Source: Minisyncoccota bacterium
Lineage (GTDB): Bacteria > Patescibacteriota > Minisyncoccia > Phycocordibacterales > PALSA-1337
Reading direction: 5' to 3'
DNA: 64,000 bases
Assembly: GCA_041671485.1 (NCBI GenBank)
Contig: JBAZBL010000003.1
Location: forward strand, 25,412 to 89,411
Below are positions 52,751-60,269 of this stretch, one piece after another (the first letter of the stretch is position 1; every line of letters starts with the position of its first letter). The notes under the pieces are model-generated. The model was not told the DNA's origin. It did no database searches and was given only the letters and a program-made list of their open reading frames with translations. The position numbers were made by a program, and so were the translations under genes.

Positions 52751-53470
52751 TTACTTCCCTTTTCTATTGACTTTCCAATCATTGATCTTTGAATGGTGCC
52801 CACTCAATAAGACTTTTGGTACACGATATTTCTTTTTCCCAAATTCTATAACTTCTGGCCTTGTATAGACATCTGGACTTGCAATCCTCTCTTCTTCGAT
52901 TGATAGTTTATCACCAAGTACACCATCTATTCTCCTTGCAATAGAATCAATAACTATCATTCCAGGCAATTCTCCACCTGTCAGAGTATATGGTCCAACA
53001 GAGATATCTGTCATCTTGAACATCTTCTTTATTCTAGCGTCTATACCTTCGTATCGTCCACATATTAAAATAATATCAGTATATTTTTTTAGTGTGTCCG
53101 CAACCTTGTTTGTAAACTGTTTTCCTGACGGACTAAAAAATACAATCTTTATTTTTTTATTTTTATTTTTTATCTTATTTATCGTCTCTTCTATCGCTCT
53201 TGCGATTGGCAATGCCTCAATAACCATACCCGGTCCCCCACCATATGGTCTATCATCAATTCTTCTTTCTGCATAAGTCATCTTTTTACTTTTTTTCGAA
53301 GGCTTGCCCGCCTCCGCTCGTATGAGCGAGCTTCGGCGTGGTAAAACGAAATCTCTAGGATTGTAATATTCAATCCCAATATATCCTTCTTTTTGCGCTC
53401 TCTTTACTATTGAAACATTGAGATACGATTCGAAGCTTTCAGGAAATAATGTAATTATGTGGAAATTCAT
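52751..53470 (-). CDS. trmD: tRNA (guanine37-N1)-methyltransferase TrmD, carrying a roughly 25-aa GC-rich in-frame insertion
   Basis: MNFHIITLFPESF...DDRPYGGGPGMV...ILICGRYEGIDAR...GGELP motifs. Confidence 0.85.
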   Translation of the reverse strand: MNFHIITLFPESFESYLNVSIVKRAQKEGYIGIEYYNPRDFVLPRRSSLIRAEAGKPSKKSKKMTYAERRIDDRPYGGGPGMVIEALPIARAIEETINKIKNKNKKIKIVFFSPSGKQFTNKVADTLKKYTDIILICGRYEGIDARIKKMFKMTDISVGPYTLTGGELPGMIVIDSIARRIDGVLGDKLSIEEERIASPDVYTRPEVIEFGKKKYRVPKVLLSGHHSKINDWKVNRKGK

Positions 53471-53482
53471 GGGATCTCACAC

Positions 53483-53818
53483 TTATTCCAATTTGAGGTC
53501 TGCCATTGCTTCATCTACAGACTTTGAAGCTTTTAGAGCAGCCGAAGGCATCTGATCCTTGAGTCCTCCAACAGGCTCATTTATCTTGAGGTTAACGCGA
53601 GAATTATTCTTCATACCCACGACACGGAGTAATGTACGGATTGATTTGGCAGTATTGCCTTGACGACCAATAATCTTGCCCATATCTGCTGCAGAAACTT
53701 CGAGAGTAAGCAGTACTCCCATCTCATCTACTGTGCGAACAATCTTGACCTGATCTGGATAGTCTACCAAAGCTTTGATAACCAATTCGAGAAACTGCTG
53801 ATCTGCGTGCTGATTCAT
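53483..53818 (-). CDS. KH-domain RNA-binding protein (YlqC/UPF0109-like)
   Basis: GKIIGRQGNTAKSIR KH motif; sits in the usual position between rpsP and trmD. Confidence 0.7.
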   Translation of the reverse strand: MNQHADQQFLELVIKALVDYPDQVKIVRTVDEMGVLLTLEVSAADMGKIIGRQGNTAKSIRTLLRVVGMKNNSRVNLKINEPVGGLKDQMPSAALKASKSVDEAMADLKLE

Positions 53819-53960
53819 GATATTTATAAGCTAAATTATAATCGTACAGTTCGCTGTACTACAAATATTCTATCAGAAAAATAATTACCGTCAATCGTTT
53901 TTGTTTCAAGTGATAATGTAATATTTTGAATCCTCTTCGGAGGCACCATAAAGTAAGATT

Positions 53961-54992
53961 TTAAAATGACCGCAGATATTCCTCAAGCAATCGGTCATAT
54001 ATTGGTTGCAATATGCACTGATAATTATAGGCATTACCATGCTTTAACATACCCAAATAAGACGAGACTGTTTCGAACTTTGGCTCGTTATTGCATTTAT
54101 TCATCATTCTTCTTCTGGTAGTTGTCCTTAACACCCGATGATCTGGAAAGTGTATCCAGCCCAAAAAGTCAACGCCCGAAGCAAAAGTCTTGAGAAATGT
54201 TTTGTCGGGATGTAATGACAAATGGAGTTTTTCTTTCAAAAATTGGTCCATATCTGTAAGCATAGATAAAAGTAATTTGTGATCAGTGTTAAGGATTACA
54301 AAATCATCGGCATAACGAATATAGTATTTGACTTTGATTTTATGCTTCATGAATTGATCGAATTTATTCATGTAAATATTCGCGAATAATTGAGAAGTTA
54401 AATTTCCTAGTGGCATACCAACATTTGGGTCACCCGAATGAAAACTGTTTATTATTTGATCTAACAGATGAAGAATGTCCCGGTCGGGAATATAGGAATT
54501 GAGTATGTCAAATAATATTTGATGATCTATTGAAGCAAAGAACTTTCTAATATCACATTTCAAAACCCAAACAGTTTTTGTATGATTGCACGATGCTTGT
54601 CTGGCAAACTCGCTAAATTTTTTGAAGGCTCTATGTGTACCTTTGTCGATCCTACAAGAATATGAATCAGAGATGAAAGTTCGGTCAAAGAATGGGTATA
54701 GTTTCCTGTAAAGTGCTCGATGTAAAATTCGATCTCTTACAGTAGCTTTATGGATATTACGAGGTTTGGGATCATTGATTTTGAAGGGCATATATGGACC
54801 ATGTACAAATGTTCTATTTTTCAAATCTTTGTGGAGTTGTAATAGGTGTCTCATTAACTGTAATCGAAATTCAGCTACATCTTCCCTTCTGTCTTTGTCG
54901 GCTGAAAATTCATTCCACGCCTCTAGTAAATTCTCAATGGATATGATAGCTTCGTAGTTATGGCTGAATTGAATTCGTCCCATATTTCTCAT
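53961..54992 (-). CDS. Diversity-generating retroelement (DGR) reverse transcriptase
   Basis: 343 aa; RT motifs including PLGNLTSQLFANIYM (the DGR-type I/LGxxxSQ motif rather than the group II QGxxxSP) and YIRYADDFVIL (YADD). Lies directly downstream of the TR on the same strand. Confidence 0.85.
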   Translation of the reverse strand: MRNMGRIQFSHNYEAIISIENLLEAWNEFSADKDRREDVAEFRLQLMRHLLQLHKDLKNRTFVHGPYMPFKINDPKPRNIHKATVRDRILHRALYRKLYPFFDRTFISDSYSCRIDKGTHRAFKKFSEFARQASCNHTKTVWVLKCDIRKFFASIDHQILFDILNSYIPDRDILHLLDQIINSFHSGDPNVGMPLGNLTSQLFANIYMNKFDQFMKHKIKVKYYIRYADDFVILNTDHKLLLSMLTDMDQFLKEKLHLSLHPDKTFLKTFASGVDFLGWIHFPDHRVLRTTTRRRMMNKCNNEPKFETVSSYLGMLKHGNAYNYQCILQPIYDRLLEEYLRSF

Positions 54993-55017
54993 AATACCCC
55001 CCCCACGGTTTTTACCA

Positions 55018-55404
55018 GTTGTCGAAAAGCTTAAATCAAGCTACAAACTTTGGCATGAATATCACGGACTCGTACCGAAAACACAAAGATATTCGCTTGG
55101 CAATAGAATAGATAATCTCTTAGTAGAAAGCATCGAAGCGACAGTAACTGCGACATTTTTATCAAAAGAAGAGAAATTACCGTGGATACGACTGGCAATT
55201 CGAAAAACCGATACATTGAAAGTTTTACTCATGATTTTATGGGAAACTAAATCAATAGATGATAAAAAATATATTGCTCTTTCTGTGAAATTAGATGAGG
55301 TCGGCAAGATGCTCGGTGGTTGGAGTGGACAGCTTATAAAATCTACCTCTACTAAAACTATAGTGAATAAACAAAACTCTCCAGCAAAAGCAGGAGAGAA
55401 ATGA
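55018..55404 (+). CDS. Avd-like four-helix-bundle protein (accessory variability determinant family) on the opposite strand to the RT; no canonical start codon as sequenced
   Basis: Frame open from 54973 to the TGA at 55402-55404. Translation ...KLKSSYKLWHEYHGLVPKTQRYSLGNRIDNLLVESIEATVTATFLSKEEKLPWIRLAIRKTDTLKVLLMILWETKSIDDKKYIALSVKLDEVGKMLGGWSGQLIK matches the 23S-rRNA-IVS/Avd four-helix-bundle pattern. An ATG at 54960 is one frame off, across a C8 tract. Confidence 0.45.
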   Translation, partial: VVEKLKSSYKLWHEYHGLVPKTQRYSLGNRIDNLLVESIEATVTATFLSKEEKLPWIRLAIRKTDTLKVLLMILWETKSIDDKKYIALSVKLDEVGKMLGGWSGQLIKSTSTKTIVNKQNSPAKAGEK

Positions 55405-55412
55405 AGAGAGTC

Positions 55413-55534
55413 GCCGACACCGCCGCAGGGTTGTTGTCTTTGAAGTCGTTGTCAAGCCAGTTGTAGTTCCAGTCCCACCTGCCGCCGTTCCAGTTGAGGT
55501 AACGAACATAGAGGTTGTCATCGGCGCTGCGGTA
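55413..55534 (-). repeat. DGR template repeat (TR)
   Basis: 122 nt aligning gap-free with 55861-55982. All 17 differences are at TR adenines (sense = - strand). The TR sense strand is rich in AAC codons. Confidence 0.85.
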
Positions 55535-55778
55535 TCGTATGAAGCACCATCCATACCACCACCCCTCGGATACCCTCAGGGCTGAATCGTATTTGGCATC
55601 GTAATGCCTTAGCACCTCATACCAAGTATTTTCATTTTTTAATGAAGTTCTGCATACACCACTCTACCCAAAATCTTGGTCGTGGATATTCTCGATGTAT
55701 GGATACTGGTTTCGGTAGCAAGCAACATTAGTCGCTCACATATTCACCTACTCCCGCCACATCTTACCATATAAATCA

Positions 55779-55802
55779 GCCCCGCGCGTTGTCGCACGGG
55801 GC
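55779..55802 (-). other. GC-rich stem-loop downstream of the VR (candidate DGR homing-enhancing hairpin/cruciform)
   Basis: gccccgcgcg-ttgt-cgcacggggc: 10-bp stem (one C-A mismatch) with a 4-nt loop, about 58 nt beyond the IMH-like end of the VR. Confidence 0.45.
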
Positions 55803-55853
55803 CAAGGTCAAAGGTCACAGGTTCTGAAGAACAAAGTGACTGATGTTCAAGAG

Positions 55854-56474
55854 CTAACTTGCCGACACCGCCGCAGGGTCGAGGCCCCTGAAGTCGTTGT
55901 CAAGCCAGCGGCAGTTCCAGCCCCACCTGCCGCCGCCCCAGCGGAGGCAACGAACATAGAGGTCGTCATCGGCGCCGCGGTAGATGGTCCCCCAGAAGAA
56001 GATGTAGCGGGTGTTTCCGTTTTCATCCTTTTTCCATGCCTCGGGAATGAGGTGCGGGTTCTTCAGGAGATAATCCAAAACATTGGCGTTGAGGACTCGT
56101 TGCTTGGCGAGTTCCTTGCGCAGGTCATTGCCACGGATGGCATTGCCTTTCTTCTGGAGCTTGGACAACCAAAACTCGATTTTCTTGCCATCGAGATAGA
56201 GGTCGTCTCCACGGCATTCGAGCTTGGCAACCTTGCCACTCTGGTGTTCTTCCACCTTCCAGCCGTCAGGAAGGTAGGGGTCGGCACCGAGGTCAATGGC
56301 GTGTTCGATAGGCTTGATTTCATACAAACCCAGTTGGACACCCCTCACACGACCGAGGAAATCCCCGACAGTGAGCGCTTTGACTTCTTCCAGCGATTGG
56401 AAGCCGTTGCGGTTGAGCGCATGCTCGATTTCTTGAGCCAAACCAACACCGAGCGTTAACTTTATATTATCCAT
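55854..56474 (-). CDS. DGR target (variable) protein, 206 aa, with C-terminal VR
   Basis: Intact ORF whose last 40 codons or so are the VR. GC content is far above the genomic background. No obvious signal peptide. Confidence 0.8.
   Translation of the reverse strand: MDNIKLTLGVGLAQEIEHALNRNGFQSLEEVKALTVGDFLGRVRGVQLGLYEIKPIEHAIDLGADPYLPDGWKVEEHQSGKVAKLECRGDDLYLDGKKIEFWLSKLQKKGNAIRGNDLRKELAKQRVLNANVLDYLLKNPHLIPEAWKKDENGNTRYIFFWGTIYRGADDDLYVRCLRWGGGRWGWNCRWLDNDFRGLDPAAVSAS
55861..55982 (-). repeat. DGR variable repeat (VR) at the 3' end of the target gene
   Basis: Cognate of the TR. Encodes YRGADDDLYVRCLRWGGGRWGWNCRWLDNDFRGLDPAAVSA, against TR-encoded YRSADDNLYVRYLNWNGGRWDWNYNWLDNDFKDNNPAAVSA. 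Confidence 0.85.
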
Positions 56475-56539
56475 AATGTGTTCTTTTTCTGTTTCGTGGA
56501 CATGTCCTTTTCGAGGACTGGTCCAAACTGTTGGGCTCG

Positions 56540-56586
56540 CAATTTAGCTTTGCCACAGCAGAGAATGGCCTAAAAAGCTACTTTCT
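56540..56586. repeat. Perfect 13-bp inverted repeat (ttgccacagcaga / tctgctgtggcaa) upstream of the DGR target gene
   Basis: Seen directly; 21-nt spacer; no T-run on either side, so it looks more like an operator or structural element than a terminator. Confidence 0.35.
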
Positions 56587-56784
56587 GCTGTGGCAAATGC
56601 AAGTTAGCATATCAAAGAACTTTACGCTAAAAGTCTATCACACCAATAACTTAAAGTCAAGGGCTTGAATTCACCGAGGAGGAATAATCCCACCTATTTT
56701 GCACTCTATTGAGTAAAGTAGATTTTAAGTTGTTGGTGCTACAGGTGGGGTTGTTACTGAAGCCTCTTTTGCTGTAATCTCAAC

Positions 56785-57135
56785 TTATTCTGACGGAACA
56801 GGTACAGGTTCAGTCACAACCACTTTCGGAGCTTCTTTCACCTCTTCCTTTTTGATCGGAGTTTTCCTAGGTAATGCATTCATCTTTTTGCCAGCAATTA
56901 CCTTCTGCGAAACAAGATAATTGTGAATTGTTACAGATGTTTGTGCACCTTTTGATATCCAATACTTGATACGTTCAACATTCAATTGTTCCAATTTATT
57001 CTTGAGTCTAGAATCATACCAACCCAAATTTTCTAGATATTTACCACTCTTTGGTCCATTTTTGGAATCAGTCAAAACCAACCGAAAAGTTGGTTCGTGT
57101 TTCCTACCAGTGCGTTGCAGTCTTATCATCAACAT
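56785..57135 (-). CDS. rpsP: 30S ribosomal protein S16 (with short C-terminal extension)
   Basis: MLMIRLQRTGRKHEPTFRLVLTDSKNGPKSGKYLENLGWYD is the canonical S16 N-terminus. Confidence 0.85.
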   Translation of the reverse strand: MLMIRLQRTGRKHEPTFRLVLTDSKNGPKSGKYLENLGWYDSRLKNKLEQLNVERIKYWISKGAQTSVTIHNYLVSQKVIAGKKMNALPRKTPIKKEEVKEAPKVVVTEPVPVPSE

Positions 57136-57179: not shown

Positions 57180-57335
57180 TAAAAAGCTTGGTGAAATATC
57201 TCTCGAGCCAACACGCAATGCGATCTGAGCCATGAACAAATTGCCCGTATTTGCCGAATCCTTGTAGGCAAATACGGTGCAATTTGGAATGGCGACCTTG
57301 CGTGGAGGCGAGGGAGATATTTCACCAAGCTTTTT
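57180..57335. repeat. Family B structured palindromic repeat, copy B (bidirectional terminator-like)
   Basis: Homologous to 39202-39358 with covarying stems (gcttggtgaaatat/atatttcaccaagc versus gcccaacgaaatat/atatttcgtcgggc; ccgtatttgcc/ggcaaatacgg versus cccatatttgct/agcaaatatgg). T-runs on both strands. Confidence 0.6.
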
Positions 57336-58381: not shown

Positions 58382-59385
58382 TGTTGGATTATGATTTGCT
58401 TTACTGGTACTTGTCTCAATAGTTCATTCTTCGAATATATTTCTGGATCAATCATTCTATCAAAACAAGTATTTCCAGATCTATGATTCCAAGAATCATT
58501 GTTGTATTTTAGGTCGGGTGCATTGACATATACTGATGTTGGACCACGGTTCTTCATATCTTCCGATGGTAGTGCAAATATTGCACAAAGTTCAAATGTA
58601 GTATCGCCTTTTTTATTATAAACATAATCAGTATCATCCTTGGGATCTTGTGGGATCAACCATCCAGATATAGGATCATTTGTATCATCCAATACGTTTG
58701 GTAATTTACTCTTATTCTGCCAATAATTGATAATTTGCCATTGAATATTCGTCAAATCATTTACCCTCTGATTGTCAAAACGAAGATTTCTTTGTTTGGA
58801 TGGAGAACCAACTGCTACAAAACCTCCGATAATTCCTGCAATAACTATTATGATACCTATACCTGCAAGTATTTTGCGCAGACTTCTTCGTGTCTCAATA
58901 GATCTTTCAAAGAGATAATAAGCAAATATGATTATAGAAACAATGAGTACAGCCAATATTTTGTATACAAACCGACTAGTTATTTCTCCGTTCAAATATG
59001 TATTTATGAGTGCAATGAGATCAACAATGATAGCTACACCTGCCGAGAAAAGTGTGAGATATATTCTCCAACGACGTATCCATATCTCTCTTTTTTCTGG
59101 TGTTATAGATATATCACGATTCGTTAGCCATTCTAGGATATATAGGATTGGTACAAGGACAATAAGCATAGAGACTGGCCATACGATACTATTGCCATAG
59201 AAATATCCTGCAAGTCTATCAGGAAGAAAATAATTTATCACACTGAAAAGCAAGTTGAGTAAAGCAATCGCTGAAGCATATAGGGCTATAGTTGCACCCA
59301 AATGCAAGAAGAAGTCCTTTGGTGTCATCTTAGGAGATACTGTATCCATAGAAGTAGTGTTTGTCGGTAAATTATTTGGTGGCAT
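58378..59385 (-). CDS. Polytopic membrane protein of unknown function
   Basis: Six or seven TM helices in the N-terminal two-thirds and a hydrophilic C-terminal domain. Confidence 0.45.
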
Positions 59386-59456
59386 AAATATAATGATTAA
59401 TTACTAAAAACTTATGTTGATTATAACATATTGGTGTATTTAGAATTTTTGAAAGA

Positions 59457-60269
59457 TTAACTATCAGAATAAGAAGTTAAATATAAATGAACTATTTTTG
59501 ATAAATATCTTTGATCAATTTTAAAGAATTTCGTAATTCTTCTAACATTATCTAAAGCAAACTTTGATGCCATTCTTTCTTCTTCTAATATATTTGCAGT
59601 ATCACTAACTTTTCTAGTTTTTTGTTCTTTCTTACGACTTTCTTTTAATTCTTCTTTTCTTTCTATATCTAATTTAGCCATATATTTTAAATGTCCAATT
59701 TCATGAAATAAATTAAATATTGCTAGGATATTATCTATTGGTAATCCTGAATATATAATACCAGAATCTGGATTAGTTCTAGATAATAACATTCTTTTGA
59801 ACCTATCTTTTGATGAAATGCCACTATTAATCAATGGAGAAATTATAAAATATTCTTGATCTTCGCTTGGTTTTAAATCTAATTCTTCATTACCTATCTT
59901 GATTTTTAAATTAGAAATATGAAATGTTCGTTCTTTTATACCATCTTGTTTAAAACTTTGTTCTAGATTAAAAAATGCTAAAGTTTGATTTGTCGATAAA
60001 GAATATATATCTAGTTTTTCACAGAAAAAAGAAATTTGTAAAGTATCTTTTTCATTACCAAAACTAAATTGATTAAAACCTTCCTTTATTCCGTAAATTG
60101 GAGTAGAAAGGTCCTCTATGGCAACTAAAATTGTTTTATCTTCAAAAGATTGTTCTATAATATTTCTTGATTGTCTAGTTTTTCTATCTATATAATCAGA
60201 ATCAATTTCTTCCTGTGTTTCTGGTTTGACAAGATCATCTGGTACTTTAAATAGTTTAAAAAATTCCAT
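59457..60269 (-). CDS. Hypothetical protein with an HExxH motif (possible zinc metallopeptidase)
   Basis: FHEIGHLKYM. The gene is distinctly more AT-rich than its neighbours. Confidence 0.4.
   Translation of the reverse strand: MEFFKLFKVPDDLVKPETQEEIDSDYIDRKTRQSRNIIEQSFEDKTILVAIEDLSTPIYGIKEGFNQFSFGNEKDTLQISFFCEKLDIYSLSTNQTLAFFNLEQSFKQDGIKERTFHISNLKIKIGNEELDLKPSEDQEYFIISPLINSGISSKDRFKRMLLSRTNPDSGIIYSGLPIDNILAIFNLFHEIGHLKYMAKLDIERKEELKESRKKEQKTRKVSDTANILEEERMASKFALDNVRRITKFFKIDQRYLSKIVHLYLTSYSDS

Follow-up and report, generated by a model that had tools for sequence, protein, structure and literature searches.

How is a targeted hypermutation machine kept in check? Unrestrained mutagenesis of a functional protein is costly, and to our knowledge little is established about the control of diversity-generating retroelements (DGR). 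A 64,000-nt stretch of DNA from a Candidatus Paceibacterota MAG, here called the window, brings this question into focus, as it carries a DGR whose accessory gene, avd, has a homopolymer at its 5' end and no usable start codon as assembled. Is such an element broken, wrongly assembled, started elsewhere, or switched off?

A chromosomal DGR of ordinary layout

There is little doubt that the element is a chromosomal DGR of Candidatus Paceibacterota (Patescibacteria/CPR) with the B3 layout typical of the clade. It is inserted between the rpsP and khpA-trmD genes, in the order target(VR) - hairpin - TR - (avd, reverse strand) - RT. The B3 layout, TR-(avd)-RT with avd in reverse orientation, is reported to make up 90% of the CPR DGR set (PMC5758913), and the host of the window DNA is itself a CPR member. 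Set against the CPR DGRs assigned to B3 by Wu et al. 2018 (PMC5758913), the gene order with its reversed avd is identical and the core shows no differences; the host phylum is also that of clade 2 of Roux et al. 2021 (PMC8144416). A neighborhood of ribosomal-protein genes has been noted for several other CPR DGRs, and their targets, like this one, have no recognizable domain (PMC5758913, PMC8144416). At least 12 CPR relatives share both the layout and mismatches confined to adenines, and avd is conserved and divergent from the RT in all 19 relatives with upstream sequence. The DGR is in itself ordinary: thousands are known in CPR bacteria, where the B3 architecture is standard. A promoter scan of the window found nothing above chance.

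A preliminary description of this DNA had claimed a complete DGR. The claim of a DGR is supported by the A-only mismatches, the kinship of the RT and the variation seen in relatives. As for completeness, target, VR, TR and RT are all present, but the avd on the opposite strand, with its unusable start codon, had been overlooked. The C8 homopolymer at the 5' end of avd and a GC-rich hairpin 3' of the VR had also been missed.

The window VR has undergone A-to-N diversification in the past. The target ORF (55854-56474, - strand) encodes the 206 aa previously proposed and has the VR at its 3' end. The VR (55861-55982, - strand; 122 nt) covers target codons 165-205 and ends 4 nt before the stop codon, while the TR (55413-55534, - strand; 122 nt) contains 31 adenines and has AAC as its commonest codon (8 of 40). 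Both repeats had been described already, with the trivial discrepancy that the gap between them is 326 nt and not 325. They align over 122 nt without gaps at 86% identity, and the aligner check upholds the earlier claim that every difference falls on a TR adenine: 17 of 17 mismatches do so (hypergeometric P 1.0e-12). Seventeen of the 31 TR adenines are thus substituted in the VR, 16 of the 17 substitutions being at codon position 1 or 2, and the repeat has only these two copies within the 64-kb window.

The flanking elements also have counterparts in known DGR. A GC-rich block of 19 nt, ACCCTGCGGCGGTGTCGGC, forms the 3' end of the VR (55861-55879, - strand). It is identical in TR and VR, which diverge directly after it, and is a putative IMH-like element by comparison with the IMH/IMH* of BPP-1 (PMC5758913), there being no consensus for IMH/IMH* scoring. 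A terminator-like scan located a GC-rich hairpin 55 nt 3' of the VR (55776-55805, - strand), with a 13-bp stem (nine G-C pairs) and a 4-nt loop. Its folding z-score is -4.65, none of 200 shuffles fold equally well, and a search 3' of the TR found no comparable hairpin. About a third of DGRs have a GC-rich inverted repeat 3' of the VR and not of the TR; the hairpin is either such a DGR-type cruciform/hairpin or the terminator of the target gene. The 420-nt TR-RT spacer (54993-55412, - strand; assigned by position) runs antisense to avd and, by analogy with the Sp region of BPP-1, presumably makes up the 3' portion of the DGR RNA that contains the TR.

The RT (53961-54992, - strand; PF00078 E 1.2e-23) has the 343 aa and both motifs earlier attributed to it, LGxxxSQ as LGNLTSQ (54390-54410, - strand; residues 195-201) and YADD (54303-54314, - strand; residues 227-230). 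Could it instead come from a group II intron or a retron, with the 122-nt repeat a coincidental duplication? Its best NCBIfam model is group_II_RT_mat (TIGR04416; E 1e-42), and database names of its relatives read 'group II intron RT' or 'retron-type RT'. However, the RT scores far under the NCBIfam cut-offs, with 146 bits against 300 for the group II model and 59 against 235 for the retron RT model. NCBIfam apparently has no DGR-RT model, so the RT was placed by comparison with the PDB. There its best match is 8ub7 (E 2e-42), which is BPP-1 brt at 100% identity; the next stands at 4.7e-21, group II intron and retron-type RTs do no better, and Brt is ahead of the other solved RT relatives by 21 orders of magnitude. 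An Rfam search of the window found no group II intron or retron RNA families. Chance duplication is also at odds with mismatches confined to adenines (P 1e-12) and with an Avd gene adjoining the RT. On the RT scores, the Rfam search, the A-only mismatches and Avd, a group II intron or retron identity was rejected; its probability is negligible. The expected placement in the DGR group is borne out, with Brt nearest and neither NCBIfam cut-off reached. An exact look-up of the RT in the contig index returned no record, its start probably being called differently there.

The prototype for comparison is the DGR of Bordetella phage BPP-1 (mtd-avd-TR-brt). The two have homologous RTs, with [I/L]GxLTSQLFAN common to both, an Avd homologue, adenine-specific TR/VR substitutions, a VR at the 3' end of the target and, after a GC-rich VR 3' end, a hairpin that is also GC-rich and has a 4-nt loop. 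Unlike the phage element, the window DGR is chromosomal and resides in a CPR bacterium. In the window avd is inverted and sits between TR and RT, whereas that of BPP-1 is upstream of the TR on the same strand, and the 420-nt spacer runs antisense to avd. As its catalytic motif the window RT has YADD in place of YMDD, and the target is a small unannotated protein in place of a tail-fibre tip. The simple-sequence repeat at the 5' end of avd is a further difference from BPP-1.

The target family is hypervariable at TR-adenine codons. It is Patescibacteria-wide and unannotated, with more than 1000 proteins, and across 62 members the TR-adenine codons have an entropy of 2.47 bits, the other codons one of 0.63 (P 7e-7). 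The window target, with a GC content of 53-59% against ~36% for the window, gave no Pfam, NCBIfam or PDB sequence match; the family has a high-confidence fold model, and the C-terminal domain is probably C-type-lectin-like. In one relative, VR turnover is a present-day process: four contigs with an identical RT (L039-L042) show 19 differences in 1.6 kb, and all 19 lie in the VR on TR adenines. The variation data from relatives thus agree with what the preliminary description had led one to expect. The only other assembly with the window target (L026) is 100% identical, so the window element itself has no independent population sample.

The avd gene and the repeat at its 5' end

Target, TR and RT share one strand; the open frame of avd (54973-55404, + strand; 143 codons), located between the latter two, is on the other. 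It scores 44.4 bits against Pfam bAvd (cut-off 40) and 56.8 bits (E 2.3e-15) against NCBIfam DivGenRetAVD, under the equivalog cut-off of 80; a sequence search of the PDB with Avd gave nothing usable. The frame has no ATG, GTG or TTG before 55216, which puts the first canonical start at codon 82, and as assembled it is not an intact, translatable reading frame. Because avd lacks a usable start as assembled, the cassette may currently be switched off.

A C8 homopolymer (54997-55004, + strand; G8 on the RT strand) occupies the N-terminus of avd, 4 nt upstream of the RT ATG, and no other G/C run in the 64-kb window reaches 7. A 24-codon frame (MAELNSSHISHNTPPTVFTSCRKA, then a stop codon; 54960-55034, + strand) begins with an ATG at 54960, reaches the tract 37 nt later, directly before the conserved avd body, and enters it one frame off avd. 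With one C less (C7) or two more (C10), this ATG frame fuses to avd and gives a basic Avd of 147/148 aa with a pI of 9.7.

Relatives show that this arrangement is a property of the clade. A repeat occupies the avd 5' site in 44 unique relatives, as poly-C of 6-13, (CT)14-21 or (CA)14; the range of tract length is also given as up to 20 nt. In 221 kb of relatives, all but one of the G/C runs of 7 or more are at the avd/RT junction. The position of the repeat relative to the avd body is fixed, and on the RT strand it is part of the 5'-UTR, separated from the RT ATG by 4-42 nt, or part of the RT ORF in (AG)n cases. The upstream ATG frame relative to avd is 0, +1 and -1 in 14, 20 and 13 states (49 states), in-frame states making up only 29%, and 16 states, the window included, have no canonical avd start whatsoever. 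Three of four repeat-less relatives have a plain in-frame ATG. Gene callers truncate or miss the 'defective' avd genes of CPR DGRs, and the junction repeat goes unmentioned in the literature searched, which included Wu et al. 2018 (PMC5758913) and Roux et al. 2021 (PMC8144416). A literature search for DGR together with homopolymers, simple sequence repeats, phase variation or slipped-strand events found no relevant report, Paul et al. 2017 being outside its scope.

Two other roles for the tract were considered and rejected. A Shine-Dalgarno function of the poly-G for the RT is contradicted by a distance to the ATG that ranges over 4-42 nt while the position relative to the avd body is fixed. 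A structural need for poly-proline at the Avd N-terminus is contradicted by proline codons that are all CCC in an AT-rich genome, by tract lengths that are not multiples of three, and by the (CT)n/(CA)n substitutes.

The repeat also varies between close relatives. Among 13 clusters of near-identical contigs, 5 show a 1-nt difference in its length, with the reservation that 1-nt changes in 8-12-nt poly-G are perhaps partly Illumina or assembly error. Three of the pairs that differ by 1 nt have no other difference in 1000 nt, and two contigs with C9 and C12 (L007 and L072) have identical VRs. In one pair (L044/L045) the ATG is in frame with C10 and out of frame with C11, and a length change likewise toggles the ATG frame in two others (L101/L099 and L102/L103).

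Could the tract lengths and frame problems be poly-G sequencing or assembly artefacts, with avd intact in vivo? Illumina chemistry is error-prone at long G runs, several of the length-polymorphic contigs have only 3-8x coverage, and one contig (L037) is possibly from a long-read assembly. Yet the same length was independently recovered in five contigs of one group (P0233; G9, OFF), in five of another (P0134; C12), in L011/L014 and in others. Moreover, 1-nt errors cannot make a conserved tract, its range of 6-13 (up to 20) nt, or the (CT)n/(CA)n substitutes. Artefact as the explanation is highly improbable.

A second possibility is decay, in which avd would be a frameshifted pseudogene without a start, the DGR inactive, and the VR differences a trace of past activity only. 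This agrees with the run of 81 avd codons lacking ATG, GTG or TTG in frame, with the identity of both known assemblies of the locus, and with orphan target homologues that lack a cassette in their vicinity and occur in identical form on more than 24 contigs. Against it, neither the remaining avd (143 codons) nor the RT (343 aa) has any interruption, both are conserved, and the TR and the IMH-like end are intact. Across the clade, 33 of 49 states have the same 'defect' at the same repeat, a pattern unlike random decay. These observations make decay an unlikely account of the window element.

Other routes to a translated Avd

Could avd simply start downstream of the repeat? The repeat would then be a non-coding part of the avd and RT leaders, and the DGR would be constitutively competent. 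A TTG, GTG or ATG is found at or within a few codons of a conserved 'LP' just after the repeat in 27 of 49 states, and any of these could be the true avd start. The one relative for which VR turnover is proven (L039 group) counts as OFF when judged by its ATG, which is out of frame, yet it has a TTG at 'LP'. The frame distribution is near-uniform, as expected of a non-coding tract, and on the RT strand the tract is clearly 5'-UTR. Both the frame distribution and the codons at 'LP' count as evidence against a switch. On the other side, a canonical start near 'LP' is missing from 20 of 49 states, the window having TTA there, and repeat-less relatives start 5-15 codons upstream of 'LP'. About 10 elements have ATG-to-repeat leaders of 4-15 nt that lie outside the RT coding sequence, and the only start that a (CT)n element (L065) could use is the ATG in front of the repeat. 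On balance, a downstream start with constitutive competence seems doubtful. Were it correct, the start would be the TTG at 'LP', or a non-canonical ATA/ATT in the window, and the repeat might still tune expression or serve as a DGR RNA element; the interchange of poly-C, (CT)n and (CA)n speaks against a sequence-specific RNA element.

Alternatively, the frame could be restored at the level of the RNA or the ribosome, by polymerase slippage or by +1/-1 frameshifting on CCC_CCC_C. tRNA-Pro re-pairs perfectly on poly-C in every frame, runs of 9-13 nt are within the range of polymerase slippage, and a +1 slip on CCC-C in the window would give exactly the product of the C7 version. However, 20 states need a shift of +1, another 13 need one of -1, and 14 need no shift. 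Because these numbers are comparable, a single programmed +1 frameshift was rejected, and no other single programmed event would serve. In addition, the site carries dinucleotide repeats in some elements, and these are not among the classical slippery sequences of ribosomes; the length differences are seen directly in DNA. Recoding is quite improbable.

A candidate switch on targeted hypermutation

The reading preferred here, which comparison of the sequences makes slightly better than an even bet, is that the repeat at the overlapping 5' ends of avd and the RT gene is hypermutable and that its length sets the translation of Avd from the ATG. For the window this reading makes C8 an OFF state of avd, and loss of one C would switch it ON. 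By homology with BPP-1, an RNA containing the TR and the downstream spacer would be reverse-transcribed by an RT-Avd complex, with random misincorporation opposite template adenines during cDNA synthesis. The cDNA would then replace the VR, which would be marked as recipient by its GC-rich IMH-like end and the hairpin beyond it, and up to 21 codons would be recoded in the C-terminal domain, probably C-type-lectin-like, of the 206-aa target. Gating Avd by the repeat, and in some elements the RT, would gate mutagenic retrohoming, and DGR activity would be turned on and off heritably and reversibly by repeat length. That the repeat is an ON/OFF switch for Avd, in some elements for the RT too, throughout the main Patescibacteria DGR clade has about an even chance of being right.

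Phase-variable contingency loci offer a precedent, with poly-G in Campylobacter jejuni and poly-C/G and short repeats in Neisseria and Haemophilus. Known phase-variable poly-G tracts match in length the 6-13 nt of the avd tracts. As in those loci, only a few codons separate an ATG from a homopolymer or short tandem repeat, after which comes the body of the ORF. Genomes that are otherwise identical have different repeat numbers, out-of-frame alleles are in the majority, and the AT-rich genome background is without other such tracts. The window's relatives thus present a repeat in the 5' coding region, length differences and frame toggling, subject to the poly-G error caveat. Contingency loci gate surface or restriction-modification genes, whereas here the gated gene would encode the accessory subunit of a targeted hypermutation machine. 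The avd repeat also differs in lying within the 5'-UTR of the divergent RT gene, or within the RT ORF in (AG)n cases, and the evidence for its proposed switching is length differences between assembled contigs. A comparison of ON/OFF state with VR activity within near-identical clusters had too little data, only one cluster showing VR turnover.

What would such a switch mean? The target family is in any case a defined set of hypervariable binding proteins in Patescibacteria, open to characterization. If the switch is real, the 'defective' avd genes of CPR DGRs need a different annotation. A switch would also explain why the assembled elements, the window included, mostly look 'broken' at the same spot, and why the Patescibacteria DGR clade has lower than average activity in metagenomes (Roux et al., PMC8144416). 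The repeat would then be a contingency locus that gates a targeted hypermutation machine. With a repeat switch on an obligatory accessory factor, most cells of a small-genome symbiont would keep a fixed working variant of the target while a minority re-diversifies it.

The cassette and its hypermutation signature

The preliminary description of the minus strand was accurate, since the TR/VR alignment, the target ORF and the RT ORF with its motifs were all found. The 206-aa target ORF lies at 55854-56474 (-) and, as claimed, its 3' end is the variable repeat (VR; 55861-55982, -); the template repeat (TR; 55413-55534, -) lies 326 nt past it. Both are 122 nt long and align without gaps at 86% identity over that length, with all 17 mismatches on TR adenines (P = 1e-12 for random placement). 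Substitution thus affects 17 of the 31 TR adenines, 16 of these changes falling at codon position 1 or 2 of the target frame, and the commonest TR codon is AAC (8/40). The 19-nt repeat core occurs only twice within the window. The GC-rich 19-nt 3' end of the VR is also present in the TR, the sequences parting right after it, and is IMH-like; a hairpin with a 13-bp stem (9 GC) and a 4-nt loop follows 55 nt downstream of the VR, and none follows the TR. An 85-codon ORF at 55358-55615 (-) spans the TR in the frame of the VR (…YRSADDNLYVRYLNWNGGRWDWNYNWLDNDFKDNNPAAVSA…), and an independent gene caller also predicts its counterpart in L026, the other assembly of this locus. It is most likely an unmutated "template" copy of the target C-terminus and not a gene.

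The reverse transcriptase (RT) is encoded at 53961-54992 (-). This 343-aa protein matches PF00078 and carries the DGR-type motifs ascribed to it, as LGNLTSQ (residues 195-201) and YADD (227-230). It scores far under the cut-off of every NCBIfam RT model, these being group II intron, retron and DRT models only (146 vs 300 bits for group II). In a comparison with all solved structures, 8ub7 comes out far ahead (E 2e-42; next a retron-type RT, E 4.7e-21). The 8ub7 entry matches brt of Bordetella phage BPP-1, the DGR RT taken as prototype, at 100% sequence identity. Rfam detects neither group II intron nor retron RNA in the window, its sole match there being a tRNA-Ser.

Overlooked at first was the accessory variability determinant, avd, a 143-codon open frame on the plus strand (54973-55404) between TR and RT, which matches Pfam bAvd (44.4 bits vs a cut-off of 40) and NCBIfam DivGenRetAVD (E 2e-15). 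The same order, TR-(avd)-RT and avd reversed, recurs in 19/19 related loci with upstream sequence, at least 12 of which also have a VR/TR pair with essentially A-only mismatches. This order is architecture B3, found in 90% of CPR DGRs (Wu et al. 2018, PMC5758913), and the Patescibacteria-restricted lineage is DGR clade 2 (Roux et al. 2021, PMC8144416); by database names the host is a Candidatus Paceibacterota MAG. Assignment of the element to the CPR B3-type DGRs is secure, with hardly any room for doubt, and DGRs of this architecture and host range are already known. By analogy with BPP-1, TR-containing RNA would serve an RT-Avd complex, misincorporation would be specific to adenines, and the cDNA would home to the VR with the IMH-like end and the hairpin as guides.

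Target family, VR turnover and genomic setting

The target gene has a GC content of 53-59% (vs ~36% for the window mean), and its product has no match in Pfam, NCBIfam or PDB sequences. Over 1000 homologues are on record, none annotated, and those with a named source come from Patescibacteria. Alignment of 62 of them shows a conserved N-terminal two-thirds, followed by 40 C-terminal residues in which an invariant scaffold (W, L, R, P) is interleaved with hypervariable positions. Column entropy averages 2.47 bits at the 21 TR-adenine codons, defined as those whose TR counterpart carries A at position 1 or 2, vs 0.63 at the other 19 (P 7e-7). One homologue, P0005 (loci L027-L036), is 78% identical to the target and recurs, with no change in protein sequence, on over 24 contigs drawn from many samples. 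Neither RT nor avd lies within 3.5 kb of its loci. Two readings fit this homologue, a DGR target that is remote or orphan and a paralogue that has become fixed.

The window element itself is known from one other assembly only, which is identical. A relative with matching architecture and 64% RT identity is present on contigs from four samples (L039-L042) that encode an identical RT protein. These contigs differ at 19 positions over 1.6 kb, and 19/19 lie in the VR on TR adenines (P 8e-16), a direct example of DGR activity. VR differences are absent within other clusters of near-identical contigs.

The cassette sits inside the widely conserved rpsP-khpA-trmD cluster (52751-57135), flanked by rpsP (S16; 56785-57135) on one side and khpA (KH-domain protein; 53483-53818) and trmD (52751-53470) on the other, with rpoB farther out. 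The neighbours of L039 are tuf-rpsJ-rplC, and ribosomal protein genes within CPR DGR cassettes were noted by Wu et al. (PMC5758913). The 310-nt rpsP-target gap holds an inverted repeat (56549-56597; 21-nt arms, 86% complementary, 7-nt loop), which may terminate rpsP or act as a regulatory hairpin of the target. Another (57181-57335; 38-nt arms, 87% complementary, 79 nt apart) fills the pyruvate kinase-rpsP intergenic gap, and GC falls to 23-25%, vs ~36% for the window mean, at 59300-59900, just past a DUF5671 membrane-protein gene.

The avd/RT junction carries a simple-sequence repeat

The avd frame of the window has no ATG, GTG or TTG before codon 82. A run of eight C (54997-55004, +) precedes the conserved avd body; on the RT strand it reads G8 and stands 4 nt before the RT ATG, and it is the sole G/C run of at least 7 in the 64-kb window. 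A 24-codon frame opening with the ATG at 54960 (+) reaches C8 one frame off avd, and computed removal of one C, or addition of two, yields a basic Avd of 147/148 aa (pI 9.7). The window copy could simply have decayed. The TrmD enzyme suppresses +1 frameshifting at CCC-N codons; that it is encoded near a poly-C-interrupted gene is probably coincidental.

Across 221 kb of the first 23 related loci, all but one of the G/C runs of at least 7 lie at this junction. With further loci from a metagenome scan and contig look-ups, 44 unique elements carry a junction repeat: poly-C, 6 to 13 nt long and most often 10, a single G20 in L063, some 22 nt ahead of the RT N-terminus, (CT)14 in L065, (CT)20 in L074, (CT)21 in L088 and (CA)14 in L068. 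The repeat always stands directly ahead of the conserved (I/F/L)-L-P of the avd body, whereas its distance to the RT ATG varies from 4 to 42 nt, which rules out that it is merely the RT ribosome-binding site. The open RT frame of the (CT)n/(AG)n elements also contains the repeat, and as no start codon separates (CT)n from the conserved RT N-terminus, the repeat appears to be inside both divergent ORFs. Every proline codon is CCC even though the genomes are AT-rich, and the homopolymer can give way to dinucleotide repeats; selection thus seems to act on repetitiveness and not on the peptide or RNA sequence.

Could the length differences be poly-G sequencing error? The repeat differs by 1 nt in 5/13 clusters of near-identical contigs: C11/C10 in L014/L080 (no other difference in 1000 nt of flanks), in L044, L047 and L048 vs L045 and L046 (0-2 others) and in L099/L101 (3 others), C9/C8 in L076/L077 (none) and C6/C7 in L102/L103 (8). 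L007 and L072/L073 have C9 vs C12 with identical VRs. The remaining clusters are monomorphic, among them one of five contigs that all have G9 and one of five that all have C12, and this speaks against sequencing noise as the whole explanation.

A putative switch of Avd translation

In three of the polymorphic pairs the length change moves an upstream ATG into or out of the avd frame. Among 49 repeat-bearing states, an ATG is in frame through the repeat in 14 (29%), only GTG/TTG in 2, and no start in 33, the nearest ATG reading into the repeat at +1 in 20 and at -1 in 13. Slippage on the repeat, at the RNA level or on the ribosome, might reconcile such frames. Best supported, at somewhat better than an even chance, is the reading that the tract works as a contingency-type switch: slipped-strand changes in its length would turn Avd translation, and with it DGR activity, on or off, and the window element would then be OFF, one contraction short of ON.

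The repeat might instead be a non-coding leader, with avd initiating after it. The near-uniform frame distribution is equally compatible with a fast-switching coding tract and a non-coding one. A TTG in many elements supports this, as does the active L039 group, itself OFF by the ATG criterion; 17 of the 33 out-of-frame states have a TTG, GTG or ATG as possible alternative start at or near "LP" (the conserved avd residues that follow the repeat). However, the other 16 states, the window among them, have no canonical start at all, the short ATG-to-repeat leaders lie outside RT coding sequence, and the sole possible start of L065 is upstream of its (CT)14, all favouring a coding tract. Of the four relatives lacking the repeat, three carry an ordinary ATG in frame, 5-15 codons ahead of "LP".

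DGR activity in Patescibacteria (clade 2) is below average (PMC8144416), which would fit a switch. The searchable literature, a scope outside which the primary CPR-DGR paper (Paul et al. 2017) falls, holds no report linking DGRs to homopolymers, simple-sequence repeats, slipped-strand mispairing or avd phase variation; a prior mention is possible. Automatic gene calls for L037 and L039-L053 treat the junction inconsistently, with avd truncated (65-108 aa) or missing and the RT sometimes lengthened upstream through the G-tract, so a systematic error is likely here in the public annotation of accessory genes of CPR DGRs.
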